Origin: an uncultured Clostridia bacterium
Lineage (GTDB): Bacteria > Bacillota > Clostridia > Christensenellales > UBA1242
Assembly: GCA_944345705.1 (NCBI GenBank)
Contig: CALVML010000005.1
Coordinates: 11,282 to 75,281 of the forward strand
Length of the DNA stretch: 64,000 nucleotides
Reading direction: 5' to 3'
The notes under the pieces were generated by a model. That model ran no database searches, was not told the origin of the DNA, and saw only the letters and a program-made list of their open reading frames with translations. The translations under genes were made by a program, and so were the position numbers. Each line of letters begins with the position of its first letter. Position 1 is the stretch's first letter. Shown in pieces: positions 7,823 through 58,689 of this stretch.

Positions 7823-8551
7823 ATGGAAGAAAAAGAAATCACGCAAAACTATCTTGAGCAAAGCAACGTAGACCAGATTGACGAAAATAAAGAAAATTTG
7901 GATAAAAACGAAATTGAAACAAATCAATCTTTAGAAAACATTTCGCAAGAGTCACAGGAAGAAAGTCAAGTTGCAGGCGCAGAGAAAGAATTAAGCGAAG
8001 ACGAGCAAAGTTATCGTGAATTTGTAGATTCACTGCCAGCAAAATGGTATGTTCTTCATACATTCTCTGGATATGAAAATGTTGCAAAAGACAATCTTGA
8101 AACAGTGGTTGAAAAATTCAACCTTCAAGACAGAATTTTTGACATTGTAATTCCAATGGAAGATGTGGTAGAAGAGAAAAATGGCAAGAAGAAACTGGTG
8201 CAAAGAAAGGCTATGCCTTGCTATATTCTAGTTAAAATGAAATATGCAGATGATCTTTGGCATAATGTAACTAGAACACGCGGTATTACAGGCTTTGTTG
8301 GACCTAAAGGTCGTCCACTTGCTCTTACAGAAGATGAAGTTGTAAAACTTAGACTTGAAAAAATTACTGTTGATGTTGACCTTCAAGAAGGTGATAGAGT
8401 TGAAATCATTGAAGGCGCACTCGATGGAATGGTTGGACAGATTAAATCGATCAATCTTGAAACAGGCATTGCTTCTGTTAATGTAGAGATGTTTGGTAGA
8501 GAAACAAGTGTTGATTTAAATTTAAGTCAACTTCGTAAAATTAATTCATAA
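7823..8551 (+). CDS. nusG: transcription termination/antitermination factor NusG with acidic N-terminal extension
   Basis: NGN domain WYVLHTFSGYENVAKDNLE and KOW motif GDRVEIIEGALDGMVGQIKSIN. About 70 aa of extra acidic N-terminus. Confidence 0.93.
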   Translation: MEEKEITQNYLEQSNVDQIDENKENLDKNEIETNQSLENISQESQEESQVAGAEKELSEDEQSYREFVDSLPAKWYVLHTFSGYENVAKDNLETVVEKFNLQDRIFDIVIPMEDVVEEKNGKKKLVQRKAMPCYILVKMKYADDLWHNVTRTRGITGFVGPKGRPLALTEDEVVKLRLEKITVDVDLQEGDRVEIIEGALDGMVGQIKSINLETGIASVNVEMFGRETSVDLNLSQLRKINS

Positions 8552-8826
8552 AATCAATTTGGAAAAATTAAACCATTAATTATGGTATACCATGCTTTTA
8601 ATGTAAATTTTGTTTTTACTTTGATCTTTTCAATTTGAAAATAAAAAACATTATTAAAAGCATTGAATATACATGATAATTTGATTAAATGAACGAAAAA
8701 TTAATAAAATCGATAAATTTTGAGTGATTTTATTGATTATTGAAAGAATTTTGATTAAATTATCGCAAAAATCGTGGGAGAGTGGAACTGCAACCACTCA
8801 AAAAAACCACATATAAGGAGGGAAAA

Positions 8827-9258
8827 ATGGCAGAGAAAAAAATTACTGCAGTTGTAAAATTACAACTCGAAGCAGGTAAAGCCACTCCGGGACCACCAGT
8901 AGGTTCTTCTCTTGGACCTCATGGTATCAATATCGCTGGCTTTACAAAGGAATTCAATGAGAAAACAGCATCTCAAGCAGGTCTTGTTATACCTGTAGTT
9001 GTTACTATCTATGCAGATAGAAGTTTCTCATTTGTACTTAAGACTCCACCAGCAGCAGTCCTTATCAAAAAGGCAATAGGACTCGATAAGGGGTCAAGCG
9101 TACCAAACAAAACAAAAGTCGGAAAAATCACAAAAGAACAAATCAGACAAATTGCAGAGCAAAAAATGCCAGATCTCAACTGCACAAGCGTTGAGTCAGC
9201 AATGAGTATGATTGCCGGTGCTGCAAGAAGCATGGGTGTGACTGTGGTTGATGAGTAA
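8827..9258 (+). CDS. rplK: 50S ribosomal protein L11
   Basis: Start set at ATG 8827 (RBS AAGGAGGG). [39 protein letters not shown] is the L11 N-terminal signature. Confidence 0.95.
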
Positions 9259-9269
9259 GGAGGAATGCT

Positions 9270-9950
9270 ATGAAAGTAAGTAAGAAATATAAACAAGCAT
9301 CCGAGCAAGTTAGACAAAAATCTTTCGATATTGCTGGAGCAGTAGATACACTCCTTGCATTGCCAAAAGCAAAATTTGATGAAACAGTTGAACTTCATGT
9401 TAGACTTGGCGTTGATGGGAAAAATGCTGACCAACAAGTAAGAGGTGTATGTATTCTTCCACACGGAACAGGTAAGGACTTAAGAGTTTTGGTTATCGCT
9501 AAAGGTGATAAGGCAGACGACGCAGTTAAAGCGGGCGCTGATTATGTCGGCGGTGAAGAAATAGTAGCAAAAATCCAAGGCGGATGGCTTGATTTCGATG
9601 TATGTATCACAACACCTGATATGATGGGTATCGTTGGACGCGTTGCTAGAGTACTTGGACCTAAAGGTCTTATGCCAAACCCAAAGAGCGGAACTGTTAC
9701 TATGGATGTAGTTAAGGCAATCAAAGATGCTAAGGCTGGTAAAGTTGAATACAGACTTGACAAGACAAACAATGTCCATGTAATACTTGGAAAAGTAAGT
9801 TTTGGTAAAGAAAAACTCATCGACAACTATAACACAGTGATCGAAGCACTTCTAAAAGCAAAACCAGCAGCTGCAAAAGGACAATATTTCAAAAATATTA
9901 CTATTGCTTCAACTATGGGCCCTGGAATTAAAGTCAACGCAGTTATTTAA
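9270..9950 (+). CDS. rplA: 50S ribosomal protein L1
   Basis: 226 aa, directly after rpl[23 protein letters not shown]...LPHGTGK and [14 protein letters not shown] motifs. Confidence 0.95.
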
Positions 9951-24785: not shown

Positions 24786-25160
24786 TTAAACCTCGCCTTT
24801 GTCCTGTTTATTGTTTAAATCTTGTCGAATATAATCTAAACTTTTTTTGATAGACATTAATTCTTCTTGGCAATCTTTAACCTTTGCTTCAGATTTTGCA
24901 AGCCTTTCTCTTGCATTGCCTAAACCAAACAAACAAGAAATAGTTATTACTGAAGAGGCGACAAATGTCAAAATAAATGTTAAGTCGGCTAACATAATAT
25001 AAAAAACTAACATTATTATAGAAAAGATTAAAAATAGATAGGCTATAATTGTAAATCTACTGTGTTTTTTAAGATCTTTAATTATTTGCGATTTGTTTTC
25101 AGACCAAGTTTTTTTACTATTGTTGTTATCGTCTTTTGGTTTTTTATTTATAATTATCAT
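24786..25160 (-). CDS. small membrane protein of the lysogeny operon (2 TM + C-terminal coiled coil)
   Basis: FTIIAYLFLIFSIIMLVFYIMLADLTFILTFVASSVITISCLFGL hydrophobic core. Overlaps the repressor stop by 4 nt (coupled), between cI-like and int. Confidence 0.55.
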   Translation of the reverse strand: MIIINKKPKDDNNNSKKTWSENKSQIIKDLKKHSRFTIIAYLFLIFSIIMLVFYIMLADLTFILTFVASSVITISCLFGLGNARERLAKSEAKVKDCQEELMSIKKSLDYIRQDLNNKQDKGEV

Positions 25161-44799: not shown

Positions 44800-45155
44800 A
44801 TTATTGGCAACAAGTGACAGCTAAAAATAGCATCATCTATAACGAAAATTTATGTGGGTATATTATAGTTTTGCGAGATAATCGTTTAGACAAAATGCCT
44901 TTTAAGTATGCAAGCGTGACTAATAGAAAGTATGCAAGTATGACTTCTGCTCTACCAGGTGAATTTATAGAACCAACAGAGACTATTTATACAACGCAAA
45001 TTGACTTGCCTTTCACAAAGGGTGGACAAATTTTAATGGATGACAACTGTACCATGACTATACGTGATATAGATAGAGTGTTAAATGCAAACACAGGCAA
45101 ACTTATGGCTTATACAATATATCTTGACGGCGGAGTACCTAATGAATTTACTTGA
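44796..45155 (+). CDS. head/tail completion protein (positional)
   Basis: 119 aa with an ATGA-coupled start. Confidence 0.4.
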   Translation: MNYWQQVTAKNSIIYNENLCGYIIVLRDNRLDKMPFKYASVTNRKYASMTSALPGEFIEPTETIYTTQIDLPFTKGGQILMDDNCTMTIRDIDRVLNANTGKLMAYTIYLDGGVPNEFT

Positions 45156-45456
45156 TATTGCTGTTGACTATCAGTCATCATTTTTTCCATATATTCCCTG
45201 GCGTACAGGTAGGCTTGCCACAACAGGAATGAGCACAGATTTTTATAATCCACAGGGCGAGAATTCACTTGGCTTTGACTTTTGTCGTAACAACAGACAT
45301 CAATACGGAATTGTTTTAAACGAGTATCCATCCATAAGCTATAACTTAAATGGTAGAAAGGGAAGTTATATAAATAGACATTATGGCTATTTTGACGACT
45401 TTTTTGATTCTTATGCGAGCTTGCTTGCGATTAGACTTGGAGGCACTTTGATATGA
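45142..45456 (+). CDS. head/tail completion protein (positional)
   Basis: Start set at ATG 45142 after GGCGGAG. 104 aa. Confidence 0.4.
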   Translation: MNLLDIAVDYQSSFFPYIPWRTGRLATTGMSTDFYNPQGENSLGFDFCRNNRHQYGIVLNEYPSISYNLNGRKGSYINRHYGYFDDFFDSYASLLAIRLGGTLI

Positions 45457-46370
45457 TAGAAAAATTTATTATAAATAAATTTAAAAAAATACTTGGCAAT
45501 CAGTATGAACTTTATGACAACGATTTTTTCGATAGGAATTTCACTACTATCATTCCTGTAAATGGTCAATATACTCAGCTAATAAACTATGAAGCCTTTG
45601 AAAAACACAGAGATAAAATAATTGGTGTTGTGCAAGTACAATCGGCACAATATTCGGTAACTTCATTTACTGCTTTAAATTCTACTTACTCATTAACTTT
45701 GTGGGTGCCTGTGAACTATAAGCTTGTAAATGCAAATGGTGAGTTATTGAAGCTAGACAAATTTAATGTTGATAGTGATATAAAAACCTTACGAGAAACA
45801 TTAAATAACAAAACCATTGATTTTGGTGATGGCTATAAAGGTGAAATGACTTTTAGCGAGCCAACATCTGTGGGTGGCGGACAAGAAAATAGTGGCAGTT
45901 ATAAACGCAAGATTTTGGTTGTTACAGGGAAAATAAATTTTACCACAAAAGGCTATTATGGTCGTGATTATAAGATAGAAATAGGTAGGCTTAATGATGA
46001 CGGTGAGATTGCATTTTTGCCTGTTAAGGACATTACAAGTTTAAGTTTTAATCCACAACCATCAACTATTGAAAATCACGAACAGGGCAAGATTATACCA
46101 GAGGAGTCAGTAGAAGCTGTAAAACAGGGTTGTGTATTCTCGGTTGATGATTCAAGCGAAGATGAAGAGCTGAACGATTTGTTTACTAAACTAGCTTTAA
46201 GTGGCGAGACATCAAAACAAGACTTTTGGCTTAAGATTAGTAAGCAAAAGAACGGCGTATATGTTGAACAAGTAAATTATGCAACTGTATTATCTGCAAG
46301 TCTTATGTTTCCATATGGTGACTCAGATGTTGGTTCTTTCACTGTGTCATGTACAAGAAAGGAGGAGTAA
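45453..46370 (+). CDS. putative tail tube / tail structural protein (305 aa)
   Basis: Position after the completion genes and beta-rich composition. No motif recognised. Confidence 0.4.
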   Translation: MIEKFIINKFKKILGNQYELYDNDFFDRNFTTIIPVNGQYTQLINYEAFEKHRDKIIGVVQVQSAQYSVTSFTALNSTYSLTLWVPVNYKLVNANGELLKLDKFNVDSDIKTLRETLNNKTIDFGDGYKGEMTFSEPTSVGGGQENSGSYKRKILVVTGKINFTTKGYYGRDYKIEIGRLNDDGEIAFLPVKDITSLSFNPQPSTIENHEQGKIIPEESVEAVKQGCVFSVDDSSEDEELNDLFTKLALSGETSKQDFWLKISKQKNGVYVEQVNYATVLSASLMFPYGDSDVGSFTVSCTRKEE

Positions 46371-46846
46371 TGCAGCAAAAATTTTATACTATCTCTTTTG
46401 TTGATAATACAGAAAATGGTGTTTTGAGTCAGACCAATATTCAAGAAGGAACAACATCACTGAATAGCATAGGGCAAAATAAAGGGAAGAAAAGCGGTTT
46501 TGAAGAAGCAACAGGTAAACTCATTGGACAGCTTTCAGGGCAAATGATAAGTCAAGTCTCATCTCAAATGGGATTTAACCTATCGCCTGTAGTAAGTTTA
46601 GGTAAAGCTATAATTACAGGTGCAGGTGCAGGTGCTCTAACAGGAGCAGTTCTTGGATTAGCAACTCAAGCAATTACATCTATAATATCTGGCATACAAA
46701 ATCGTATTGCCGAGCTGAGACAGGAAGCTGCAGAAGCTAATGAACGAGATAATAGTCTTGTTCTTGCAGGCAGTTTAGACCTTTATGGTTATACAATTAA
46801 AAAAGGGAAATGGGGGAGAGATGAATATGTCTATAACAGGGGTTAA
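46370..46846 (+). CDS. Gly-rich hydrophobic virion protein (158 aa; ejection/pilot-like or very short tape measure?)
   Basis: Start at TAATG after AAGGAGGAG. Central LSPVVSLGKAIITGAGAGALTGAVLGLATQAITSIISGI segment. Confidence 0.45.
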   Translation: MQQKFYTISFVDNTENGVLSQTNIQEGTTSLNSIGQNKGKKSGFEEATGKLIGQLSGQMISQVSSQMGFNLSPVVSLGKAIITGAGAGALTGAVLGLATQAITSIISGIQNRIAELRQEAAEANERDNSLVLAGSLDLYGYTIKKGKWGRDEYVYNRG

Positions 46847-49445
46847 AAATACACAAGATTGGATATGCAAATTTCAGTTTTTTGATAGAAACACAGGACA
46901 GTGGTCGAGTATGTTTGCGCCACAAATTGGTTTCGGTGAAACGTTTGTTCAAGACGAAACAACTGATGATGGAAGTTTAAATTTTAAATGGCGTAGCAGT
47001 TCAAAGCCTAATATACAACACATGCAGTGGGCAAGAATATTACATTTTCATAAGGGTGACAATATGGTGGCAACATATGACGAGAATGGACTACCAATAA
47101 ATCACAATCAATATGTTATAGGTGACTTTCAGATGGCACAAAGCAAGGATAAGTCCTATTGGCTTGTCAAACTTTCTCTACTTGAGCCGATAGAAAGAAT
47201 GCGATTTGTTGTTGGCGAAACTCTTGCCTATACCAATCAAACATCCAAGACTGTCACTGATGGCTCTGGTAATACTGTCACATATGTTAAAGATCCATAT
47301 AATCATTTAACAGCCCTTGAGAGATTTTTAAAAGTCACACCTGCGAACTGTGATAATTATGGTGAAGGTTATAATCCACATAACAATAAATCATGGTATA
47401 ATAGGATAAAGATACTTGATAAAGACTTTTTGCAAAATATACCATTTGATAGCGACTCATTTACTGAGCCAGACCTGTATACAATTTTATTCAAGTATGA
47501 CAAAAGCACAGGAAGAACACCTTGTATGTATTTCGATATGGATCCAGTTACCGATTTACCGCGAAATCTTGATAGAGATGAGTATATACTTAAATTTCTA
47601 CGCCAAGACGGATTTGATAAACCTGTTCTAAACCTATCAGACATAACCGCAAACGCACAAAATGTGACTTATAAATCAAGCCTAGCAAACTTTGCTACAG
47701 GAGTTGTTAGCAATGTTGAAAATCTTGTCACGGGGAGTAATACAGCATTTCCTTTCTACAAATTATATGCTGTACCAGAAATAAATAATAATGTAAGAAA
47801 TTTATCAAATTATAACACTGTTGATAGTGGATGGGGAATTAAATTTCCATTTCCAATAAAAAGAGTTAATAAAATTATTAGAAGGACAGCACTTTTTTGG
47901 GAAAATCTTAATTCTGTAGGTAATGGTGTCATTAGTAGAAGAATTAGTGTTGATGATATTGACTTAACAAGCAACTGTTATGAGATGCAAGAATATAATA
48001 GTTTGGATGAAGAAGAATATTCAGAAGATGAACTATTTTATTATAAAGAAGGTGACAATTTTGTTTATATTAAGAATTATTATTGTGTAAATAATCCAAA
48101 GCTTGACGAAATTATCGAACCATATTTTTACTATATAGAATACGAACCATTAATTAACCCTAAATTAGAAATTGGTGATAACGAATACTCAACTATTTTT
48201 AATCAAGTAGATAGCCAGGTGGATAGCACTAAATATAATAAATTTTTGAATCGGTATTTATTATCAATGGGGAAATCTGATTTAACTATAATTAAAAAGC
48301 ATTATCATCCAGAGGAAATGTATGAAATCGGTAGTCTAGTTTACGATGAAGAAAATAACAAAAAATATATGATAACAGGTTCTTCATATCAAAATCTGAA
48401 TTTTGAACTTCTTGCCGTTTACCAGCTTAATGAGAACCATTTTAGAAGGAATAATTCCGTTAAGGCAAATAAAGCAATAAGACAAAATGCTTCTATAGAT
48501 TATTCTAATATAAAAAACAGAAAAGTTTCTATTATAAATAATATAAATTTAAATTCTAATAGTAATAATAATTCTAAATTCAGATTTATTTTTAATTCCA
48601 TCGTGAATGATGATTTAGATATTCCACAATGTGTACTTATTAATGCTTCATCGAACCTATTGAATTCAAATAATGAAAATGTAGAAATGAACAAAAAATT
48701 TGTTTTGCCTCTACTAAGTACGGCAAATGATAATGAAATTATATTCGTGTTTTGCATTCAAGATAATGCAATGATAGGCAAAGACAAATATTTTGATGAT
48801 AAAAGTTATTCTGGTGCAGGCGGTGTAAGAAGATATTATCCTATAACAAGAATTTCCAAACAGGTTGATGTATTATATACAGATCCATTTGGTTGTATTG
48901 ATATAATGGAATTAGATCTATGTTCTAATCCACAAGATATGACCGATATTGAAATAGGAAATGATAATGTAACAGAAACTACTTTTAATATGTATCTTGA
49001 CAATTATAAAAGGCTAGCTTGTGTCACTATATCCGATGATGAAGCAAATATTTTGAAAGAAAACTCTATCATAAATTTTGGATTAAATATACTAAAAGAT
49101 TCAATTGAAAAACCAATAATATCTTATATTGTTAAATTCAATAGTGAAAATATAATATTAACCAATAAATTATTATTATCTAGTCTGAAAAAAGTAGTAT
49201 TTAGTAATTTAATTGTAAAACTTTATACTTGTAATGTTTCGATATATGATGACATAGATTATATAGCTAGTTATCAAGCAGAATGTTCTTTAATTGATAA
49301 TGGTGTAAAAATATCTTTTGCAAATGGAATTCAAAATGTTAAATCTTTAGTCTTATGGAGTGATAATGATGTGTTATTATTGGCGAAAAATGTAGATGAA
49401 GACGAAATTTATAATGGTTATTACATAATTTCACTTGACTGTTAA
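46821..49445 (+). CDS. large tail/baseplate structural protein (874 aa)
   Basis: ATG after GGGGGAGAG. Beta-rich and aromatic-rich N-terminal two thirds, then a very N/I/K-rich C-terminal third. No peptidase or lysozyme motif seen. Confidence 0.5.
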   Translation: MNMSITGVKNTQDWICKFQFFDRNTGQWSSMFAPQIGFGETFVQDETTDDGSLNFKWRSSSKPNIQHMQWARILHFHKGDNMVATYDENGLPINHNQYVIGDFQMAQSKDKSYWLVKLSLLEPIERMRFVVGETLAYTNQTSKTVTDGSGNTVTYVKDPYNHLTALERFLKVTPANCDNYGEGYNPHNNKSWYNRIKILDKDFLQNIPFDSDSFTEPDLYTILFKYDKSTGRTPCMYFDMDPVTDLPRNLDRDEYILKFLRQDGFDKPVLNLSDITANAQNVTYKSSLANFATGVVSNVENLVTGSNTAFPFYKLYAVPEINNNVRNLSNYNTVDSGWGIKFPFPIKRVNKIIRRTALFWENLNSVGNGVISRRISVDDIDLTSNCYEMQEYNSLDEEEYSEDELFYYKEGDNFVYIKNYYCVNNPKLDEIIEPYFYYIEYEPLINPKLEIGDNEYSTIFNQVDSQVDSTKYNKFLNRYLLSMGKSDLTIIKKHYHPEEMYEIGSLVYDEENNKKYMITGSSYQNLNFELLAVYQLNENHFRRNNSVKANKAIRQNASIDYSNIKNRKVSIINNINLNSNSNNNSKFRFIFNSIVNDDLDIPQCVLINASSNLLNSNNENVEMNKKFVLPLLSTANDNEIIFVFCIQDNAMIGKDKYFDDKSYSGAGGVRRYYPITRISKQVDVLYTDPFGCIDIMELDLCSNPQDMTDIEIGNDNVTETTFNMYLDNYKRLACVTISDDEANILKENSIINFGLNILKDSIEKPIISYIVKFNSENIILTNKLLLSSLKKVVFSNLIVKLYTCNVSIYDDIDYIASYQAECSLIDNGVKISFANGIQNVKSLVLWSDNDVLLLAKNVDEDEIYNGYYIISLDC

Positions 49446-49477
49446 CTTTATTTATTATAAACTTAAACAGAGGTATT

Positions 49478-49780
49478 ATGAATACAAAAAAAATAATAAT
49501 GTTAAGTTTTATTTTGATTTTCTTAATTTTAATTTTAGCAGGTCTTGGTCATGCTTTTTCGTTTATTGTACAATCATATAATAGTATTTTTTATGATTTT
49601 GGTACAGGAGAAAGCGCAAATCTTTCTGATGAGAATTTAAAACTAATTTGGAGTTGGTACGATTCTTATTATATTTTATCTATCATAGCTATTATATTAT
49701 TATCATCTTTAATAATTTTAGTTTCATATCTTTTTATTAAAGAAATAGTATATTATTATAAACAGAAGAAACTTAAATAG
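49478..49780 (+). CDS. small 2-TM membrane protein, paralog A
   Basis: MNTKKIIMLSFILIFLILILAGL...YYILSIIAIILLSSLIILVSYLF. RBS AGAGG. Confidence 0.6.
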   Translation: MNTKKIIMLSFILIFLILILAGLGHAFSFIVQSYNSIFYDFGTGESANLSDENLKLIWSWYDSYYILSIIAIILLSSLIILVSYLFIKEIVYYYKQKKLK

Positions 49781-49788
49781 AGGTGATT

Positions 49789-50088
49789 ATGAATACAAAA
49801 AAAATAGTAATATTAAGTTGTGTTTTAATTTTCTTAATATTGATTTTAGCAGGGCTTGCCTATGATTTTTCATTTATTATACAATCATATAACAATATTT
49901 TTTATGATTTTGATACCGGTGAAAGTTATACCAATTATACAGATGAGGAGTTAAAACTGTTTTGGAGTTGGTACGATTCTTATTATATTTTGTCTATCAT
50001 AAGTATTATATTACTATCAGTATTAATAATTTTAGATTTATATCTTCTAATGAAAGAAATAGTGTCTTATTGCAAGCATAAGAAATAA
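49789..50088 (+). CDS. small 2-TM membrane protein, paralog B (tandem duplicate of 49478-49780)
   Basis: About three quarters identical to paralog A by hand alignment. The duplicated unit (about 311 nt) includes the upstream ACTTAAAYAGAGGT. Confidence 0.6.
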   Translation: MNTKKIVILSCVLIFLILILAGLAYDFSFIIQSYNNIFYDFDTGESYTNYTDEELKLFWSWYDSYYILSIISIILLSVLIILDLYLLMKEIVSYCKHKK

Positions 50089-50115
50089 TTGACTACTGAA
50101 ATAAAAGTGATTGTT

Positions 50116-50667
50116 ATGAAAAAGAAGTTAACTTATTTTTTTGTAATTTCTACATCTATATTATTAATTGTTTTAATAGGGTTACTTTCCTATCACTTAG
50201 ATTACTTTGTAAAATATGAAATTGGGGGAAGTGATTTTTTGCAAATGATTTTTATTTTCATATTTTTGTTAATCGCATTTATACTATATTGTGTTATACT
50301 CTATTGTTTCATAAACAAAAGAAATGTTCCAATATTAACATTTCTAAAATTTATAATTCTAGTATTTTTATTAATTAGTTTTATTTTAACTTTGATTTAT
50401 ACTATTGATAATTATCATTTTTATTTAATTGAGGAGTCTTTGAGTTGGAATGATATATTTTTAAATAGCGAGTTAACAACTATTATGTTAACTATCTTAT
50501 TTGCATCAATCTTTTTATTTATGGCTTTTGTTTTTGTTTTAATACAAATTATTCTTGATATAAAAAACAAAAATTATCCACAAATAAACTTAGTTAAACT
50601 TCGTCAATCTCGCAAAGACAAACGCCTTAAACGTTTACAAGATAAAATAGATAAGTTAGATGAGTAG
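50116..50667 (+). CDS. 4-TM membrane protein with basic coiled-coil tail (183 aa)
   Basis: Start at ATG 50116. Four long hydrophobic segments, then KLRQSRKDKRLKRLQDKIDKLDE. Confidence 0.55.
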   Translation: MKKKLTYFFVISTSILLIVLIGLLSYHLDYFVKYEIGGSDFLQMIFIFIFLLIAFILYCVILYCFINKRNVPILTFLKFIILVFLLISFILTLIYTIDNYHFYLIEESLSWNDIFLNSELTTIMLTILFASIFLFMAFVFVLIQIILDIKNKNYPQINLVKLRQSRKDKRLKRLQDKIDKLDE

Positions 50668-50697
50668 ATTTTGTAAAATCTTATTAAATATTTTAAT

Positions 50698-50726
50698 TTG
50701 ACTATTTAATATTAAAAGGTTACAAT
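50698..50726 (+). promoter_or_regulatory. promoter of the 50733 membrane-protein gene (possibly leaderless mRNA)
   Basis: TTGACT (50698-50703), 17 nt, TACAAT (50721-50726). The ATG lies 7 nt after the -10 and there is no SD at normal spacing. Confidence 0.4.
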
Positions 50727-50732
50727 ATATAT

Positions 50733-51221
50733 ATGAAAAAGAAAAAAGCTTATTATATATACTCATTTTTTATCTGTGTATTATCAATTGTAAATATAAT
50801 CATAAACATTTCTCCTTTAAAATATGCTATATATGTTTATAATGTAGTGAGAAGAGATTATGATATTGGTCTCTATATTTATGGCATTGTTATGGCTATT
50901 AGTTTAGTTATAATTATATTAAATATAATTGGGATGTGGTTATACAAGAAAGATAAAAAGGTAAAAATTAGTATTGTTATAAGTATATTTTCTATAATAT
51001 TTCTTTTATTTATATTTATTCAAGCTATATATTTTATAAATTCCACAATAAATCTTTTGAATCAATACGAAGGTTCAACGGCTTCTCATTTATATGTACA
51101 TTATTTACAACTTGCATTCTCTGCTATATGCATTATTCTTGAGATATTTAAACTTGTCATTATATCTAAATCAGCTCGCAAGCCTAAAGAGAATGCCGTC
51201 AAGCTAGATGAGGTAAAATAA
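50733..51221 (+). CDS. 4-TM membrane protein (162 aa)
   Basis: MKKKKAYYIYSFFICVLSIVNIII... with four hydrophobic segments. Confidence 0.55.
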   Translation: MKKKKAYYIYSFFICVLSIVNIIINISPLKYAIYVYNVVRRDYDIGLYIYGIVMAISLVIIILNIIGMWLYKKDKKVKISIVISIFSIIFLLFIFIQAIYFINSTINLLNQYEGSTASHLYVHYLQLAFSAICIILEIFKLVIISKSARKPKENAVKLDEVK

Positions 51222-51302
51222 CGAATAAAGGGAAAAGTAGGTATTATTTTTTAAATATTTGCATAAAAAGTGCAAAAATCGCAAAAATAACTCTGTAAAA
51301 CA

Positions 51303-51331
51303 TTGACAATTATCATGTTTTTGTATAAAAT
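51303..51331 (+). promoter_or_regulatory. promoter of the ATPase/RloB-like cassette
   Basis: TTGACA (51303-51308), 17 nt, TAAAAT (51326-51331), with a TG two bases upstream. The ORF-track TTG start is actually this -35 box. Confidence 0.55.
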
Positions 51332-51347
51332 GATAATGGAGGTTAAA

Positions 51348-52604
51348 ATGTTAATAGATTTTAAATTTAAAAACTTTATGTCTTATAGAGATGAAACTTT
51401 ATTCACAATGGAAGCAAATGTAGATAATAGTCACGTAGACAATTTGATCCAAAATGAAAATAAAAGATATTCAAAGGTTAGGGTGATGTATGGGGCGAAT
51501 GCTTCTGGTAAATCATCATTTATAAAGGCTTTAGATTTTGTTAATCAGTTTGTATTTATTTCTAATGTTGTGCTTAATACAAATCAAATAAGAATTGTTC
51601 CATATAGATTTCGGGATAATTATCTTAATTATCCTTCAGAATTTTGTATTGATTTTGTTAAAAATGGAAAAAGATACAGGTATTCTTTTTCATGTAAAAG
51701 AGATATGGTCATCAATGAACGCCTTGATGTTTTTTATTCAGCTAAACCAACTAATATTTTTGACAGGTATGATACTGAACACTTCAAAGTAAATAAAAAT
51801 TTTATCAACATAAAAACATTAGAAGATAAACTTGACCCTTATAAATTATTTTTAACAACGGTTGCAAGTAAACAAATAGATGTTGCTAAACAAGTTGTAG
51901 AATTTTTGTTGAACGATCTATTTATTCTTCGTAGTCCAGATATAAATTTTAATTTTAAATTTATATTTGATAATAATGACTTTGAAGATTTTAAAAGGTT
52001 TTGTTTAAAGATTTTAGGGAATGCTGATATAAATATTACTGATTTTGATATAGAAGTAAAAGCTTTAAAAGATTTAGATAATGCAGATAATTTTTTAAGA
52101 CTCTATAATGAACAAACAAAATCAGAACTACTTAGAAATACAAGCATTTTTAACATAAGAACATTGCACAAGATTAAAAATGGCGATAAAGATGAAGCTT
52201 ATGAGTTAAACATGAAACAGGAATCTTTAGGAACACAGCAATTATTTAATCTAGCTCCAATTTTATATTATGTTTTTAGAAATGGTAAAACTTTAATAGT
52301 AGATGAGTTAGACAAGAGTTTGCATCCTTTACTTGTTCAGTATATTATTAAGATGTTCTTAGATAAAGATATAAATACAAAAAATGCTCAGTTAATATGT
52401 AATACTTTCGATACAAATCTACTAGATCTAGATTTGTTAAGGCGAGATGAAATATGGTTTACTGAAAAGGATTTTAAAACAGGGGTTTCTGAACTTTATT
52501 CATTATCGGACTTTTCTATTAGAAAGAATGAAAATGTGAACAAAGGATATATGCTAGGTCGATATGGAGCAATCCCTTTTATAAAAGGAGTATTCGATGT
52601 ATAG
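51348..52604 (+). CDS. ABC-type (AAA_21/AAA_15-like) ATPase of a two-gene defence-like cassette
   Basis: Start at the ATG after GGAGG. MLIDFKFKNFMSYRDE, Walker A YGANASGKSS, signature-like ESLGTQQLF, Walker B/H-loop TLIVDELDKSLHP, C-terminus RRDEIWFTEKD...GRYGAIPF. Confidence 0.8.
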   Translation: MLIDFKFKNFMSYRDETLFTMEANVDNSHVDNLIQNENKRYSKVRVMYGANASGKSSFIKALDFVNQFVFISNVVLNTNQIRIVPYRFRDNYLNYPSEFCIDFVKNGKRYRYSFSCKRDMVINERLDVFYSAKPTNIFDRYDTEHFKVNKNFINIKTLEDKLDPYKLFLTTVASKQIDVAKQVVEFLLNDLFILRSPDINFNFKFIFDNNDFEDFKRFCLKILGNADINITDFDIEVKALKDLDNADNFLRLYNEQTKSELLRNTSIFNIRTLHKIKNGDKDEAYELNMKQESLGTQQLFNLAPILYYVFRNGKTLIVDELDKSLHPLLVQYIIKMFLDKDINTKNAQLICNTFDTNLLDLDLLRRDEIWFTEKDFKTGVSELYSLSDFSIRKNENVNKGYMLGRYGAIPFIKGVFDV

Positions 52605-53214
52605 GCAACGGATAAAGAAATTTAGAAATCCAATTATATATTTAATAGTGGAAGGTAAAAATAAGACAGAGCGGAATTATTTGTCATATTTCAAAAATAA
52701 AAATAACAAATTTAAATTATATATAGTTGATAGTGTAGCAACTGACCCAGAAAGTATGATAAAAAAAGCCATAGAAGTCTATCGTAAAAATGATTTAAAT
52801 GAAATGAATGGTGATAAAGTTTTTTGTTTAATTGATTTAGATTTGTCCGCAGAAAGATATAAAAAAGTAAACATGATGCTTCAGAAGAATGTATATAAAA
52901 AGGTTAATGTAATTTTTTCAAATCCATGCTTTGAAATTTGGCTTTTGTATCATTTTACCGAGTATCCTAAACCCGAGAAATGTTCTAGTGATGTAAAAAA
53001 ACAAGTAAAAAAATATATTAAAAATTATGAAGAAAATTACGACAATTATGATATCATAGGTATTTATGAGAAATATATTACAGCAATAAATAATTCTGAC
53101 AGGAGAAATCGACTTTATATAGAGAATAATATATCTAAACATGAAAGAAATCCGTATACGGAAGTGCAAAATCTTATAGACTTATTCAATAAATACAATG
53201 AGCAGGACAAGTAG
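52597..53214 (+). CDS. RloB-like (TOPRIM-related) protein
   Basis: IIYLIVEGKNKTERNY, VFCLIDLD and FSNPCFEIWLLYHF match RloB-family hallmarks (EG..TE..YF, D.D, SNPCFE.WLLLHF). Overlaps the ATPase gene by 8 nt. Confidence 0.75.
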   Translation: MYRQRIKKFRNPIIYLIVEGKNKTERNYLSYFKNKNNKFKLYIVDSVATDPESMIKKAIEVYRKNDLNEMNGDKVFCLIDLDLSAERYKKVNMMLQKNVYKKVNVIFSNPCFEIWLLYHFTEYPKPEKCSSDVKKQVKKYIKNYEENYDNYDIIGIYEKYITAINNSDRRNRLYIENNISKHERNPYTEVQNLIDLFNKYNEQDK

Positions 53215-53226
53215 TCTTGCTTTTTT
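53202..53226 (+). terminator. intrinsic terminator closing the ATPase/RloB-like cassette
   Basis: GCAGGAC (53202-53208)-AAGTA-GTCTTGC (53214-53220, one G-U), followed by TTTTTT. Confidence 0.55.
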
Positions 53227-53242
53227 AATTTAAGGAGAAAAT

Positions 53243-55753
53243 ATGAAAAACAATAAAGTTTTATTGTCATTCGATATGAATGGCAATTTTTTATCTATTC
53301 AAGAAGATAGCAATAAAATCTACGCAGGAAGTGTGGCGAGTGTTGAGTATTATGTCGATTTTACCGAAAACTTATCTGCAAATGATTTAGTTTATATTTC
53401 ATTTACTAGACCAGACAATCAAAAGCTTGCTCCATTAATTTGTGAGCGAATACTTGATAATAGATTTAAATTGTTATCTACGGGGGAAGAACTCGATTAT
53501 AATTTGACAACAACCGAAGAAATGACTATCAATGTTATAATTAAAACTAGAGATATTATAACTAATGTTTCAGCCATTAAATCGCAAGCAAGTGTTGTTG
53601 TTAATGTTTATCCAGGAAGTCAATTTGTTCCAGGAATAGTTGATGATAGTGTTGTAACTAATCTTGAAGAACATTTGAATGATATTGAAAAATACACAAT
53701 TAAAAAATATAATGTGAAAGACATTCAAAATGGATTAGTCTTGATACCTTATGCAGAAAACGGAATAAAAGAAGCTCCTGCAATATACATGGGTTATTCG
53801 CATTTAGTTAAATTTTATAATTGGGAATATGAAGAATATCGTTCAACAAATGTTCAAGGAAATTTATTTGTATTTGCAGAAAATGTAGATTCCAATATAA
53901 TAAAGCAATATGAGTATTTATTTACAGATAATAAAATATATGCTAGAACAGTGATTCAAGAGACAGTAACCAATGTTACAACCACCATTACAACCATCGA
54001 TGCTGGTGATTTTTATGATATTTCACTTGTCAATGATACTTTTTTGGATTATACAGATGGTAAAATTACTGAGCATAACACAAGTGGCACTGCACATTAT
54101 GATATCAGATCTCTTATTTCACAACTTACAAGCCAAGTTACTGAGAATACGAGTGATATCGCAAGCAATTCAAATAGAATTGACGCTAATGCTACTAATA
54201 TAAGCAATTTGACTATACAAGTCAATAGCAATTCTAGTTTGATTCAAGATACAAGAAACAATCTAGCAAGTAATTATTATACTAAACAGCAAACTTATAC
54301 AAAAGACGAAGTCAAGAGTTTGCTTGGAACGGCGGCAGGCTTCCAGTTTGTAATTGTAGAAGAATTGTCATTGCAGGGCGATCCAACAAAAATATATCTT
54401 GTGCCCGTATCGAAATTAACACAGTTAACCGAAAATGATCCACAAACAGAAGTAGATGATTATTATGACGAATATATTTGGCTTGCTTCTGAGAATAGGT
54501 ATGAGTGTATCGGTTCAACGCGGATCAATATAGATGACTATGTTACAAACGAAGACTTTGAAACAGCGCTAAACACCAAATCTGATACTACATATGTTGA
54601 CGAACAGCTTGATTTAAAAGCTGATGCTACAGAAGTTGATGATGTTAAAAATAATGTGAGTGGATTAGAAACGTCTATTTCAAGTTTACAGACGCAGATA
54701 AATAATAATATAGCAAATATTACCGATTTAGAGAGCAATAAACTGGATAAAAATCAAGGTGTAGCAAATGCTGGCAAGGTGATGCTTATTGGCGAAGATG
54801 GCAACTTAATTCCACAATCCCTAGCGGATGGAGGTACAACTGTAATTGTGAATGGGGAAGCACAAACCACATGGGATGCAGATACTAAAGCAAATGTGTC
54901 TTCACTTTCAGCAGTTGCAACGAGTGGCTCTTATAGTGACCTAACTGATAAACCTACTATTCCAACAGATAACACAGAACTTACAAATGGCGCGAATTAT
55001 GCTACAGTTTCACAGATCCCAACTAACAATAATCAATTAACTAACGGAGCAAATTACGCTACAAAATCAGAAGTATCATCCACTTACGCTACAAAATCAG
55101 AAGTATCATCCACTTATGCGACTAAAACTGAGTTGACAACCGAGATAAGCAATAGGACTACTGCGGATAGTAATTTGCAAGGTCAAATTAATGAAAAGGC
55201 AAATAATACAAATCCTCAGTTTTATAATACAGCTAACTTTAATCCTACCACAGGTAATACAGAAAGGGGAGTTATAATTTCTCCAGGTGCCTATACACAA
55301 CCTCGAATAACATTTGTTGGAAATTTAGGAGCACAATTATATATAACAATGGGTGAAAGTGATTATGACGGAAATTATATTTCTTGCTCATCGGAATTTC
55401 GTTCTAGTAGTATATACACTAATAGTTTATCTGTCAATGGACGTGAACCACGTCTTATATTTGACCAGGGTACAACATCAAATGGTTATTGGATTAAATA
55501 TACTGACAGTACTATGGAACAACATTTTACAGTTACTGGTTCACGGGGAGATGTAACACCACATAATTTTCTTCAAGACTTTAGGGGTATTCCTATAGTT
55601 CATAGAACAATTGATATAGATGGTAGTGGTAATGCCAGTCAATTAAGAGGATGGAATATTTCAAACTTAACAAATACCGGTTTTAATATATATACTACTG
55701 ATATTTCGGGGGCAGAAACATCTATGATTTCTGCCTATGGATATTGGCAATAA
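53243..55753 (+). CDS. tail fibre / receptor-binding protein (836 aa)
   Basis: Central N/S/T-rich coiled-coil region (TENTSDIASNSNRIDANATNISNLTIQVNSNSS), repeated ..NGANYAT.SEVSSTYATKSE.. units, and a globular C-terminus. Confidence 0.7.
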   Translation: MKNNKVLLSFDMNGNFLSIQEDSNKIYAGSVASVEYYVDFTENLSANDLVYISFTRPDNQKLAPLICERILDNRFKLLSTGEELDYNLTTTEEMTINVIIKTRDIITNVSAIKSQASVVVNVYPGSQFVPGIVDDSVVTNLEEHLNDIEKYTIKKYNVKDIQNGLVLIPYAENGIKEAPAIYMGYSHLVKFYNWEYEEYRSTNVQGNLFVFAENVDSNIIKQYEYLFTDNKIYARTVIQETVTNVTTTITTIDAGDFYDISLVNDTFLDYTDGKITEHNTSGTAHYDIRSLISQLTSQVTENTSDIASNSNRIDANATNISNLTIQVNSNSSLIQDTRNNLASNYYTKQQTYTKDEVKSLLGTAAGFQFVIVEELSLQGDPTKIYLVPVSKLTQLTENDPQTEVDDYYDEYIWLASENRYECIGSTRINIDDYVTNEDFETALNTKSDTTYVDEQLDLKADATEVDDVKNNVSGLETSISSLQTQINNNIANITDLESNKLDKNQGVANAGKVMLIGEDGNLIPQSLADGGTTVIVNGEAQTTWDADTKANVSSLSAVATSGSYSDLTDKPTIPTDNTELTNGANYATVSQIPTNNNQLTNGANYATKSEVSSTYATKSEVSSTYATKTELTTEISNRTTADSNLQGQINEKANNTNPQFYNTANFNPTTGNTERGVIISPGAYTQPRITFVGNLGAQLYITMGESDYDGNYISCSSEFRSSSIYTNSLSVNGREPRLIFDQGTTSNGYWIKYTDSTMEQHFTVTGSRGDVTPHNFLQDFRGIPIVHRTIDIDGSGNASQLRGWNISNLTNTGFNIYTTDISGAETSMISAYGYWQ
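55055..55114 (+). repeat. perfect 2 x 30-bp tandem duplication inside the fibre gene
   Basis: TACGCTACAAAATCAGAAGTATCATCCACT twice (YATKSEVSST x2), followed by a degenerate third copy. Confidence 0.9.
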
Positions 55754-55764
55754 GGAGGTAAAAA

Positions 55765-56133
55765 ATGCAATTAAATGATATTTTTTCAGAAAAATGTTAT
55801 ATAGAAGCCGTTGAGTTTGCTAATAAAAATGGTTATGTAATAACAGAAATTGAGCCAGACGAAAATGGCAGAAGATTTCAAATACAAAGTTTTATTTTAA
55901 CAAAGGAAGAAGTTCTCGATCTTCTCAGAACAAGGCGTGAAGAGGAGTGCTTTCCTATAATTAACAGAGGTTCGCTTTGGTTCGAACAACTTACTGAAGC
56001 ACAGAAAGCAGAACTAAAAACATGGTATAAATCATGGTTAGATATAACCGACAAATATGTAGATGGAATGGATTATTTATCATTAATACCTACAAAGCCT
56101 AATTGGTTAACGACAAATAGAAATTTAGAGTAG
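55765..56133 (+). CDS. hypothetical protein downstream of the fibre (XkdW-like position)
   Basis: 122 aa, RBS AAGGAGG. No motif recognised. Confidence 0.5.
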   Translation: MQLNDIFSEKCYIEAVEFANKNGYVITEIEPDENGRRFQIQSFILTKEEVLDLLRTRREEECFPIINRGSLWFEQLTEAQKAELKTWYKSWLDITDKYVDGMDYLSLIPTKPNWLTTNRNLE

Positions 56134-56144
56134 AGGAGATTATA

Positions 56145-56570
56145 ATGGAATTCAAAATTGAAAACAACAGGGGATTTTGGTCACAAAAAACTATTGTTTG
56201 TAACGAAATGATAACATTAGTACGTAACATTGACAACAAATATGAAGTATATTTGTGTTTTAAAAATGGTGATAAAAAAGCTAAAATAAAGCCAAGTTGT
56301 GCATTTGTTATTCCAAGTGAAGTATTCATAGATGGTGTTCTTGAAACTAATGTTGAAGTATTCTTTCAAGGAACTATTATTAAACGCATACCATGCGACC
56401 GACTAATTATTCAAGACACTGATAATGAACTGAAAGCAATACCTGAAGTTGAAATATTAAAAAGCACTATAAGTGAACACGGGAATACAATAAATTATCT
56501 TAACAGTAAAGTGAAAGAGCTCAGCAATAAGCTGGACTTTTTTATTAATCTTTGGAAGGAGGAATTATGA
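56145..56570 (+). CDS. hypothetical protein (141 aa) with C-terminal coiled coil
   Basis: RBS AGAGGAG. C-terminus ISEHGNTINYLNSKVKELSNKLDFFINLW. Confidence 0.5.
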   Translation: MEFKIENNRGFWSQKTIVCNEMITLVRNIDNKYEVYLCFKNGDKKAKIKPSCAFVIPSEVFIDGVLETNVEVFFQGTIIKRIPCDRLIIQDTDNELKAIPEVEILKSTISEHGNTINYLNSKVKELSNKLDFFINLWKEEL

Positions 56571-57163
56571 TGAGTTTACTTTTGCAAGCACAATGGGTAA
56601 CTGAGGCGAGCGATTTTATAACACAAAATTGGGACAAATTATTAGGCGTACTTGGTGGCACCAGTGGTATTATTGCAATCTTATTGTTTATAGGTAAGCT
56701 TATACTTGTTTGTGTTCAAGGTAGGATCGCAAGAAAGAATGGAATACCATTGCAAAAATCATTTGATACACTAAAAACTCAAGTCACATCTGTAATAAGC
56801 GAGTTTCAATTTTCTCTGCAAACAATTATAAACGAGCAAACAGAAAAGACTAAAGAAGAGTTAAAGATTTACATACAAGAACTATTAGAGAAAGCTCAAA
56901 AAATTAAGGTTGCGCTTTATGATAAACTAATAACGGAAGGGGAAAGTGCTCAGGAGTTATTGAATGAATTAAACACAAAAATTGAAGAAGCTCAGTCTGT
57001 GCTAGAAGATAACAAAAATGAACTTGAAATTGAGCCTGTAATCGAAGAAACGCAAGAAGTTGAACAAGTGTCAATAGAAGAGGAAAAAGAGCTAGAAATG
57101 CAAGTACAGCCGGCTACAAAAGCTAAAAAAGTTAAGAAAGCAAGGCGAGTGATAGTGGAGTAA
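56567..57163 (+). CDS. single-TM protein with long acidic coiled coil (holin-like/XhlA-like position)
   Basis: ATGA-coupled start after GGAAGGAGG. TM segment LLGVLGGTSGIIAILLFIGKLILVCV. Confidence 0.5.
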   Translation: MMSLLLQAQWVTEASDFITQNWDKLLGVLGGTSGIIAILLFIGKLILVCVQGRIARKNGIPLQKSFDTLKTQVTSVISEFQFSLQTIINEQTEKTKEELKIYIQELLEKAQKIKVALYDKLITEGESAQELLNELNTKIEEAQSVLEDNKNELEIEPVIEETQEVEQVSIEEEKELEMQVQPATKAKKVKKARRVIVE

Positions 57164-57167
57164 CGCA

Positions 57168-57689
57168 ATGAAAGAAAAGAATTGGAAGTTAACTCTGTTT
57201 ACATGGTTATACAGAGTTTTTTGTTATCTTGTACCAAGTGGCTACGCTCTATATGCTTTTTTAATCAATACACTCATAAGCGAACAAACAAGCATCTGGG
57301 ATAAGGTTCGTTGCAGTGCAATTTTTGTTGTAGCTATAATTGTGATAATAGCTATTTTCTTTTATGGCAGGCATTTAAAGAAAAAAATAAATGACATTAC
57401 AAATCAATGTATTGAATGTATAGATAACTCACTTAAAGCTGATCTTGTTGCAATGAAAAAGAAATGGGAGGCAAAACAAGAAATGTTTCGTAATGCCTGT
57501 TTTGTTGCACCATTTATAATTGCTTGGTTTATAGTTTCAATGATTGAGAAACAAGTTGTATCACTTCGTGGTATGCTCATGATTGTTTCAATATCAATGT
57601 GTGCTGGTTTAGGATTTAATGGCGTAGCTCAATGGATAAAGGCTAAAAGTGGGGTAAAAGCAAATGAATCTAAAGAACAAGATAAATAG
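57168..57689 (+). CDS. 4-TM membrane protein (173 aa)
   Basis: Hydrophobic segments FCYLVPSGYALYAFLINTLI, AIFVVAIIVIIAIFFY, ACFVAPFIIAWFIVSMI, MLMIVSISMCAGLGF. Confidence 0.55.
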   Translation: MKEKNWKLTLFTWLYRVFCYLVPSGYALYAFLINTLISEQTSIWDKVRCSAIFVVAIIVIIAIFFYGRHLKKKINDITNQCIECIDNSLKADLVAMKKKWEAKQEMFRNACFVAPFIIAWFIVSMIEKQVVSLRGMLMIVSISMCAGLGFNGVAQWIKAKSGVKANESKEQDK

Positions 57690-58689
57690 TATAAATAAAA
57701 AAGATTTACTGCGAGGTATATCAGGTACACTAATTATCATCTTAGTGTTAATAGCTAATGGTTTTATGTCGTTTATCACTGTGGGTTTTGCTTTCGAGAA
57801 AATTCTTACTGCATCATATTGGGCAAGTTTTTCCATATTACTTGCTTCTGAGTTATCTGTTCTTTTTGGTATGTATCTTATACAAAAGGGTCGTGATTTA
57901 AAGAAAAAGAAAATTACAGATATACAGGATGAAATAGACAAACAGCGTAGAACTATATATGACTTAGATAAGGTGGCTGAAGCTGAAAACTGGCTAAAGG
58001 ATGTTTATAATTATCAAATTAAACTCGATTTATATGAAGATAAAATTAAATCAATATACGAATCATTGCGCGTTAAAGAACCACAAAAAGAAGACAAAAA
58101 TTATAACAAGAAAAAAATAAAATATGACAAAATAATGGCACAAAAGACGCAACTTCTAGAACAACTTGATTTTATAAAAAAAGACCGAAAACGTTTAAAC
58201 TTGATTATAAATAAAAGTGATACACATGAGATTGCAGAACTTAATGAGACGCTCAATACTGACAAATATAAATTTCGAACAGCCAAAATACATTATAAGC
58301 CTATTTATTGGGGAAACTTATTGTCCGATGTAGAAGAAACTAAAACTAAACCGGTGTCTGCTTTTTTCGATGAAAAGATTGAGCTTACAAAAAGTGTCTC
58401 AAAATACATTGCGACAGGTCTTTTATCGGCTGGATTTGTTTCTTGTTTAATATTTCCGACTTTTAATTCTCTTGGATGGAATACTGTTCTTAGCCTTCTT
58501 GTCAATCTAGTAACATTGATTGTCTTTATGATTAAAGGTATTGGATTATCAAATAAAATCATACTTGGTAAATATTATAAAGCTCTTGAAAGTCGTAAGT
58601 CAATTTATACCAAAATGCTAAAAGATTTAGGTGTTTCAAAGATTGTAATTGAAGACGAGGATGTCAATGAAACTGAAAACTTGGGTTAA
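57664..58689 (+). CDS. membrane protein with 2+2 TM segments flanking a long coiled coil (341 aa)
   Basis: An N-terminal TM pair, about 170 aa of K/E-rich coiled coil, then a C-terminal TM pair. Confidence 0.55.
   Translation: MNLKNKINSINKKDLLRGISGTLIIILVLIANGFMSFITVGFAFEKILTASYWASFSILLASELSVLFGMYLIQKGRDLKKKKITDIQDEIDKQRRTIYDLDKVAEAENWLKDVYNYQIKLDLYEDKIKSIYESLRVKEPQKEDKNYNKKKIKYDKIMAQKTQLLEQLDFIKKDRKRLNLIINKSDTHEIAELNETLNTDKYKFRTAKIHYKPIYWGNLLSDVEETKTKPVSAFFDEKIELTKSVSKYIATGLLSAGFVSCLIFPTFNSLGWNTVLSLLVNLVTLIVFMIKGIGLSNKIILGKYYKALESRKSIYTKMLKDLGVSKIVIEDEDVNETENLG

Follow-up and report, generated by a model that had tools for sequence, protein, structure and literature searches.

A cargo slot with small polytopic membrane protein genes in the tail operon of an uncultured Clostridia prophage, and its possible role in superinfection exclusion

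The DNA analyzed here is a 64,000-nucleotide stretch (hereafter, the window) from the genome of an uncultured gut Clostridia bacterium (1.28 Mb, 32.8% GC, 98.9% complete), within which lies a prophage of approximately 36 kb. In the tail operon of this prophage, a tail protein gene (46785-49445, forward strand, 886 aa counted from its first ATG) is directly followed by four consecutive genes, designated mp1 to mp4, and these by an ATPase/RloB gene pair that constitutes an AbiL cassette. All four genes lie on the forward strand. The first, mp1 (49478..49780), encodes a 100-aa protein with two predicted transmembrane (TM) segments, an N-in/C-in orientation and a 44-aa outer loop that is acidic and rich in aromatic residues, and it is followed by its tandem paralog mp2 (49789..50088, 99 aa, two TM segments). 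The third, mp3 (50116..50667), encodes a protein with four TM segments, 183 aa long when read from the ATG common to its relatives, that ends in a conserved, basic, coiled-coil-like cytoplasmic tail, RQSRKDKRLKRLQDKIDKLDE. The fourth, mp4 (50733..51221), encodes a 162-aa protein with four TM segments, the best conserved part of which is the third, outer loop, INSTINLLNQYEGS.A.HLYVH. Open reading frames (ORFs) and hydropathy thus agree with the arrangement described in the original prediction, which had placed four membrane protein genes with 2, 2, 4 and 4 TM segments between the tail gene and the ATPase pair. The proteins begin with MNTKK (mp1 and mp2), MKKKL (mp3) and MKKKK (mp4), and the positive-inside rule predicts an N-in/C-in topology for all of them, with lysine-rich N-termini, acidic odd-numbered (outer) loops and basic C-terminal tails. 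An AlphaFold2 model of Mp4 takes the form of a bundle of four long helices, with a predicted local distance difference test score (pLDDT) of 76.5.

The reading frames of the block are unbroken in more than 20 independent metagenome contigs, and the ratio of nonsynonymous to synonymous substitution rates (dN/dS) of its genes ranges from 0.24 to 0.61, versus 0.13-0.25 for structural genes, with dS values of up to 1.0. The four genes are therefore under purifying selection that is more relaxed than that acting on the structural genes, and it can be considered established that mp1 to mp4 are real genes encoding what are predicted to be polytopic membrane proteins. Conservation is unevenly distributed along the proteins. 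In the mp4 family the third, outer loop is the best conserved segment, with 86% pairwise identity, whereas the mp3 family is most conserved in its cytoplasmic tail, RQSRKDKRxKxLQDKIDKL[DE], where identity is 63%, versus 36-45% in the TM segments. A tail similar to that of Mp3 also ends two proteins of the related locus L001, its 158-aa membrane protein and its Mp4 ortholog. That loops lying outside the cytoplasm are conserved suggests that they meet a specific partner on the outer side of the membrane.

The first two genes form a repeat with a 311-nt period that takes in the ribosome-binding region AACTTAAAYAGAGGT, and their products are 74.7% identical, values that match the duplicated unit of about 311 nt and the 75% identity given in the original prediction. 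The duplication had also been described as fresh, a description that does not hold: DNA identity between mp1 and mp2 is 83%, with dS of 0.46 and dN/dS of 0.28, and both copies are retained in all close relatives (L011, L012, L013, L015, L019 and L022). The related locus L021 carries a single 98-aa gene (8001-8297), which was considered as a possible pre-duplication state and rejected, since it is an exact mp1/mp2 chimera with the crossover in a 31-nt identical stretch; it probably reflects either assembly collapse at k=31 or a later, secondary unequal crossover. The DNA of mp3 and mp4 is 89% identical to the copies in L005, while the flanks are about 70% identical, and the Mp3 protein is 94% identical to its L005/L006 counterpart at loci where flanking tail genes show 46-59%. 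Judging from these identities, mp3 and mp4 have moved between otherwise diverged phages.

Base composition sets the block apart from its surroundings. Its GC content is 20.8-23.7%, whereas the genome stands at 32.8% and other membrane genes of phage and host at 30-33%, and GC at third codon positions (GC3) is 0.14-0.21, versus 0.24-0.29 in those other membrane genes. Since the other membrane genes reach 30-33% GC with higher GC3, amino acid usage alone does not account for the AT-richness of the block. The contrast with the flanking structural genes (21-24% versus 32-36% GC) upholds the AT-rich character that had been attributed to the block in the original prediction, but AT-richness extends beyond the block, over approximately 47750-53750, taking in both the AbiL pair and the C-terminal third of the tail protein gene (48525..49445, forward strand). 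The latter is hypervariable, with 24.6% GC and GC3 of 0.14, and forms the left flank of the slot described below: the N-terminal 580 aa or so of the tail protein are near-invariant across lineages, the C-terminal 300 aa or so have diverged, and the DNA similarity of the window to L005, L001 and L009 ends at 48482-48549. The separate acquisition that had been proposed for the block is supported.

Comparison with related prophage loci reveals seven slot variants between the same two tail genes. The membrane genes, numbering one to four and all encoding polytopic proteins, always come first, straight after the tail gene stop codon, and are followed by a cassette that differs among variants. In the window, membrane genes of 100, 99, 183 and 162 aa precede AbiL, while in L011-L020 and L022 the same four genes precede a trio of genes for proteins of 381, 92 and 147 aa. 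In L001/L004, genes of 158 and 168 aa precede an AbiL cassette of another subtype, the AbiLi protein of which is 28% identical to that of the window, and L006 joins this second AbiL subtype to membrane genes of 169, 183, 145 and 157 aa. L005 combines genes of 169, 183, 145 and 142 aa with the trio, L009 combines genes of 183 and 162 aa with an ImmA/IrrE-like protein of 179 aa and a 2-TM protein of 161 aa, L023 combines a single gene of 179 aa with a cassette composed of an 81-aa gene, HicB and a 138-aa gene, and L024 combines genes of 195 and 158 aa with a trio of 372, 92 and 147 aa. The sharpest comparison is that of the window with L011, which is 99.7% identical across 45000-51220 (one base short of the end of mp4), unrelated from there to 53200, and 98.8% identical from 53201 onwards. 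The mp1-mp4 block is accompanied by the non-AbiL trio in L011-L020 wherever the contig holds the downstream cassette, and AbiL is absent also from the L005, L009, L023 and L024 slots. Because a near-identical block in L011 stands beside another cassette, the membrane block is independent of AbiL. The notion that the membrane genes and the ATPase/RloB pair make up a system of five or six genes, for which co-occurrence had been suggested as a check, is hence refuted as an obligate association, other lineages pairing related membrane genes with the second AbiL subtype, an ImmA-like pair or HicAB. On the basis of these comparisons, it is established that the slot has defined bounds, is prone to recombination and carries the membrane genes as accessory cargo.

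Both ends of this slot are defined. On the right it is closed by a putative terminator consisting of a hairpin and T-run (53200..53228, forward strand), located directly before the Shine-Dalgarno sequence of the fiber gene. The 26-nt hairpin AGCAGGACAAGTAGTCTTGCTTTTTT is invariant in six lineages carrying four cassette types, has a folding energy of -13.2 kcal/mol (z-score -3.46) and is one of only three terminator-like sites in 10.5 kb; all slot variants with a known end finish at it, and the homology of all lineages resumes at 53201. The same 26 nt could act as a search handle for the slot. On the left, the border is the stop codon of the tail gene. A weak promoter-like box, TTGACT-17-TAAACT (49435..49463, forward strand, scored 9 of 12), overlaps this stop codon and is followed by an AGAGG Shine-Dalgarno sequence, making it a candidate start for an mp1-mp2-mp3 transcript; five other lineages have a TTGACA box 0-8 nt after the stop. 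Within the slot, a 66-nt junction spacer (51224..51289) marks the left border of the swappable cassette, identity to L011 ending at 51220. This spacer is 95% identical to positions 13854-13919 of L009, where the genes on either side are different, and is probably a recombination linker. The 3' end coding for the KIDKLDE tail, together with the downstream element TAGATTTTGTAA, likewise recurs behind different genes, and these conserved linkers look like joints for module exchange. Neither the 66-nt spacer nor a small AT hairpin after mp3 folds better than shuffled sequence.

Upstream of mp4 lies a promoter-like box, TTGACT-17-TACAAT (50698..50726, forward strand), which had been pointed out together with the closeness of the ATG. 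The mp4 start codon (50733) lies 6 nt past the -10 element with no Shine-Dalgarno sequence, a leaderless layout. Across the window, L005 and L001, the 32-nt segment surrounding the -35 box is 100% identical, whereas the mp4 coding sequence shows just 82-89% identity. A TTGACT at 50089, before mp3, was discarded as a promoter, as its -10 element would overlap the ATG. Across the slots, boxes of the form TTGAC[AT]-17/18-T[AT]nn[AT]T were found before 10 of 15 membrane genes, compared with 0.075 expected from shuffled upstream sequence, and the leaderless layout (ATG 5-9 nt past the -10 element, no Shine-Dalgarno sequence) occurs in 8 of the 15, compared with a shuffled expectation of 0.02. Under a looser test, about 2% of long host ORFs show such a layout. 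The eight genes span five families lacking clear mutual sequence similarity, so the leaderless layout is not one inherited motif. Taken together, the slot presents variable extra DNA at a fixed site, a deviant base composition and, as judged at the sequence level, its own terminator and consensus promoter boxes that are conserved and recurrent. These features would match the classical description of a moron.

The membrane genes belong to exceptionally narrow families. Word-indexed searches among 5.8 billion proteins returned two to three homolog clusters per gene (three each for mp1 and mp4), and when 1.84 billion representative proteins were searched exhaustively with a profile of the mp3 family, four hits were obtained, three of which are full-length and have the whole tail, the fourth being a C-terminal fragment in which the tail is also kept. 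Searches of mp1-mp4 against Pfam, PHROGs, PADLOC and NCBIfam at E <= 0.1 gave only chance-level TM matches, mp1, mp3 and mp4 had no tblastn match among 50,697 GenBank phage records, and a megablast search with the 10-kb region had no match. Scans for related prophages yielded one locus among GTDB genome contigs (L009), one truncated locus in JGI metagenomes (L010) and two weak partial matches in 400 genomes of the same order, while an IMG/VR scan for the tail protein and related prophages yielded none. Every contig bearing a relative represents the same kind of prophage and the same slot, and the membrane gene families are hardly met outside this phage lineage. A profile-profile comparison of mp3 and mp4 (probability 1.9%) does not show that the 4-TM genes share an ancestor; BLAST similarities of 23-31% obtained without composition correction were distrusted.

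The reading that we tentatively favor, with confidence falling somewhat short of even, is that these are moron genes expressed in the lysogen and acting at the membrane in superinfection exclusion. The slot, running from the tail gene stop to the hairpin before the fiber gene, would hold the four genes as accessory moron cargo in the tail operon of a temperate phage, and would be organized in two tiers, an array of one to four small polytopic membrane genes followed by a swappable intracellular defense or toxin-antitoxin cassette, here AbiL. In the lysogen, the membrane genes would be transcribed from their own housekeeping-type promoters, with mp4 made as a leaderless mRNA and mp1-mp3 expressed from the weak promoter that overlaps the tail gene stop, and transcription would end with the hairpin; in the lytic cycle, late transcription would presumably run across the membrane genes as well. 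The proteins would insert N-in/C-in into the cytoplasmic membrane, exposing their acidic, aromatic-rich conserved loops outside and their basic tails inside, and might there hinder incoming phages in forming a channel or passing their DNA, in the manner of HK97 gp15, P22 SieA and T4 Imm. Several unrelated paralogs could broaden the range of phages excluded, and AbiL would provide a second, intracellular layer. Among the readings considered, exclusion appears to be the best fit to the anatomy of the locus, which combines promoter, terminator and deviant composition with polytopic membrane proteins placed beside defense cargo.

The closest parallel is HK97 gp15 (Cumby et al. 2012), an inner-membrane superinfection exclusion protein that is expressed from the prophage and blocks genome entry; it is encoded by a tail operon moron that brings its own promoter and terminator and deviates in GC content (reviewed in PMC3594210). 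The locus resembles it in having an extra gene or genes in the tail operon, promoter and terminator motifs, deviant composition and, by prediction, a small membrane protein product. In HK97, an Escherichia coli siphovirus, however, gp15 is a single YebO-family gene, whereas here one to four genes of unrelated, uncatalogued families are found in a Clostridia prophage, mostly in a leaderless layout and always followed by a second, swappable cassette. P22 SieA, an inner-membrane protein of 162-164 aa with three predicted TM segments, blocks DNA injection (PMC10883804). It is similar in size class to the 162-aa and 183-aa proteins described here, and like them polytopic and prophage-encoded, but differs in having three predicted TM segments and a Gram-negative host, and shares no detectable sequence similarity with them. 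The sieA gene sits in the immI region of P22, unlike the slot described here. Other phage-encoded membrane or surface proteins known to block DNA injection are T4 Imm, lactococcal Sie2009 and Ltp of Streptococcus thermophilus (PMC3952083). Of these, Imm belongs to a lytic phage, the genes for Sie2009 and Ltp are located between integrase and repressor, and Ltp is a lipoprotein; none has homology to the proteins encoded here.

Several observations weigh against exclusion. No homology was found to holin, Sie, Imm or Abi families, including gp15/YebO, SieA, Imm, Sie2009 and Ltp, and a Foldseek search of BFVD with the AlphaFold2 model of Mp4 returned nothing at E <= 0.001, giving only generic four-helix membrane bundles. 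At least one 4-TM gene with a KIDKLDE-type, Mp3-like tail is present in every lineage, a distribution more in keeping with a lineage core gene than with optional cargo. The prophage also carries a separate gene for a 124-aa protein with two TM segments and a C-terminal coiled coil (24786-25160, reverse strand) between the integrase and an S24/LexA-like repressor, and it is this gene that occupies the classical sie position of Gram-positive temperate phages. Promoter-like hexamers are not significantly enriched across the AT-rich region (87 versus 69.7 +/- 8 expected), and the case for promoters is hence one of conservation and recurrence. The exclusion reading is, moreover, argued by analogy throughout.

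The same anatomy, comprising the moron slot, separate promoters, terminator and membrane location, would also support another lysogenic conversion role at the membrane, such as protection from a bacteriocin or membrane-active toxin, altered envelope or stress physiology, or the modulation of a host transporter or receptor to ends unrelated to phage exclusion. Immunity genes typically encode small polytopic proteins and form tandem arrays that diversify, which counts toward such a role, as does the fact that morons encode many kinds of functions of benefit to the host (PMC3594210). This alternative is nonetheless considered less likely than exclusion, since no toxin or bacteriocin gene was recognized in the slot, the only recognizable neighbors are anti-phage or toxin-antitoxin cassettes, and the membrane genes have no family match. 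Alternatively, the proteins might act in lysis, as holins, antiholins or determinants of lysis timing made late, offsetting the lack of a recognizable lysis cassette. They resemble class I and II holins in being small, with two to four TM segments and a charged cytoplasmic C-terminus (a generic feature that does not discriminate), and in being encoded in the late region. The 2-TM, N-in/C-in arrangement of Mp1 and Mp2 is that of class II holins, the mp3-like gene is found in every lineage, the genes sit in the late operon with no terminator upstream, no endolysin domain was recognized in the scanned tail, fiber and right-arm proteins, and Mp3 has a weak match to an 81-aa PHROG of unknown function (E 9.5e-4). 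Unlike holins, however, they have no adjacent lysin, their neighbors being a tail gene and a defense cassette, and no holin-family match in Pfam, PHROGs or NCBIfam; their copy number (one to four) and identity vary among close relatives; a holin placed under such consensus housekeeping promoter boxes, with their leaderless layout, would already be made in the lysogen; and their conserved outer loops are long, 44 aa in Mp1/Mp2, where class II holins have a tight turn. Nor is the phage otherwise lacking in holin-type candidates, as had been supposed, since the fiber gene is followed, at the usual lysis position, by genes for conserved membrane proteins of 203 aa (one TM segment and a coiled coil), 173 aa (polytopic) and 341 aa (2+2 TM segments), of which the 203-aa and 173-aa proteins are 74-89% identical across lineages, better conserved than the slot proteins. 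A holin role, one of those originally proposed, is accordingly quite improbable. A wall-less host, which would make a lysin needless, was considered and rejected, as the host genome has four Mur ligases and two penicillin-binding proteins. In the right arm (55765-58689), the last gene differs by lineage, encoding 341/342 aa in some and 296/300 aa in others.

The membrane proteins could also be imagined as a shared effector or docking platform, in which 4-TM proteins with the RQSRKDKRxKxLQDKIDKLDE tail serve exchangeable sensor cassettes, one effector for many sensors. Each cassette type does lie directly downstream of such a membrane gene, and docking could take place at the conserved cytoplasmic tail. 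Lambda RexB offers a precedent as the 4-TM partner of a cytoplasmic sensor: it is a defense system member of about 144 aa, which the lysogen makes from the leaderless cI-rexA-rexB transcript. RexB needs RexA, however, whereas the membrane proteins here are tied to no single cassette and show no homology to it. AbiL and HicAB are described as self-sufficient two-gene systems, also in PADLOC models; the trio and the ImmA-like pair carry TM proteins of their own; each unit has its own promoter box; and the same AbiL subtype occurs with different membrane genes, those of 158 and 168 aa in L001 versus those of 169, 183, 145 and 157 aa in L006. A shared platform is thus judged very unlikely. The least probable of the alternatives, to which hardly any weight is given, is that AT-rich DNA here merely holds spurious ORFs or genes in decay, without function. 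The very narrow families (two to four clusters or hits each) and the compositionally biased sequence speak for it, but dN/dS well below 1 at the divergence reached, the intact frames in independent contigs and the conservation of loops, tail and promoter oppose it, and the selection signal already makes it unlikely.

If the exclusion reading is correct, the locus would represent a two-tier defense bay in the tail operon of a rare prophage lineage of uncultured gut Clostridia, the first tier consisting of membrane genes that each have a promoter, are mostly leaderless and act where phages enter, and the second of a plug-in intracellular cassette, with an invariant terminator closing the bay and conserved linkers permitting cargo to be swapped. 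Prophage morons encoding small membrane proteins beside defense cargo are a familiar kind of element; what is new here are the protein families, the recurrent leaderless layout with one promoter per gene, and the clean two-tier slot with conserved borders. The gain is incremental, the exclusion function being drawn from analogy. The locus nevertheless supplies several uncatalogued families of candidate exclusion proteins, the AbiL pair evidently needs no membrane partner here, and the slot signature (tail gene stop, TTGACA box, conserved hairpin) could be used to harvest new defense cargo, such as the trio of 381, 92 (DUF4325) and 147 aa.

The cassettes of the second tier are varied in content. 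The AbiL cassette of the window (51303..53214, forward strand) has its own TTGACA-17-TAAAAT promoter box (scored 11 of 12), followed by AbiLi (51348-52604) and AbiLii/RloB (52597-53214). The pair is an ordinary PADLOC AbiLi/AbiLii match (8.7e-88 and 2.2e-23, respectively), with Pfam domains AAA_21 and RloB, and forms a cassette separate from the membrane block. Both AbiL subtypes, the ImmA-like pair and HicAB have their own TTGACA boxes and normal Shine-Dalgarno sequences, and the trio has an extended -10 element and a leaderless-type layout. The proteins of the trio that takes the place of AbiL (L011 6636-8502, L005 11358-13224, L024 2970-4825) are one of 381/372 aa, a DUF4325/STAS-like one of 92 aa (Pfam E 9e-4) and one of 147 aa whose N-terminus bears a TM segment. 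The trio is without a match in PADLOC and is a candidate for an uncatalogued defense system. In L009 (14007-15028), the cassette encodes the 179-aa ImmA/IrrE-like protein, which contains an HExxH motif and matches the NCBIfam spr1629 repressor/antitoxin family (7e-12), and then the 161-aa 2-TM protein, which has a faint match to SLATT_1 (E 0.03). The L023 cargo, with its HicB antitoxin homolog between the 81-aa and 138-aa genes, spans 8693-9770. Beyond the slot, the variable C-terminal 300 aa or so of the tail protein look like an exchangeable host-recognition module, and in L009 (15057-19464) the fiber gene is split into parts of 470 aa and 328 aa by a gene for a 610-aa Cys- and Leu-rich repeat protein.

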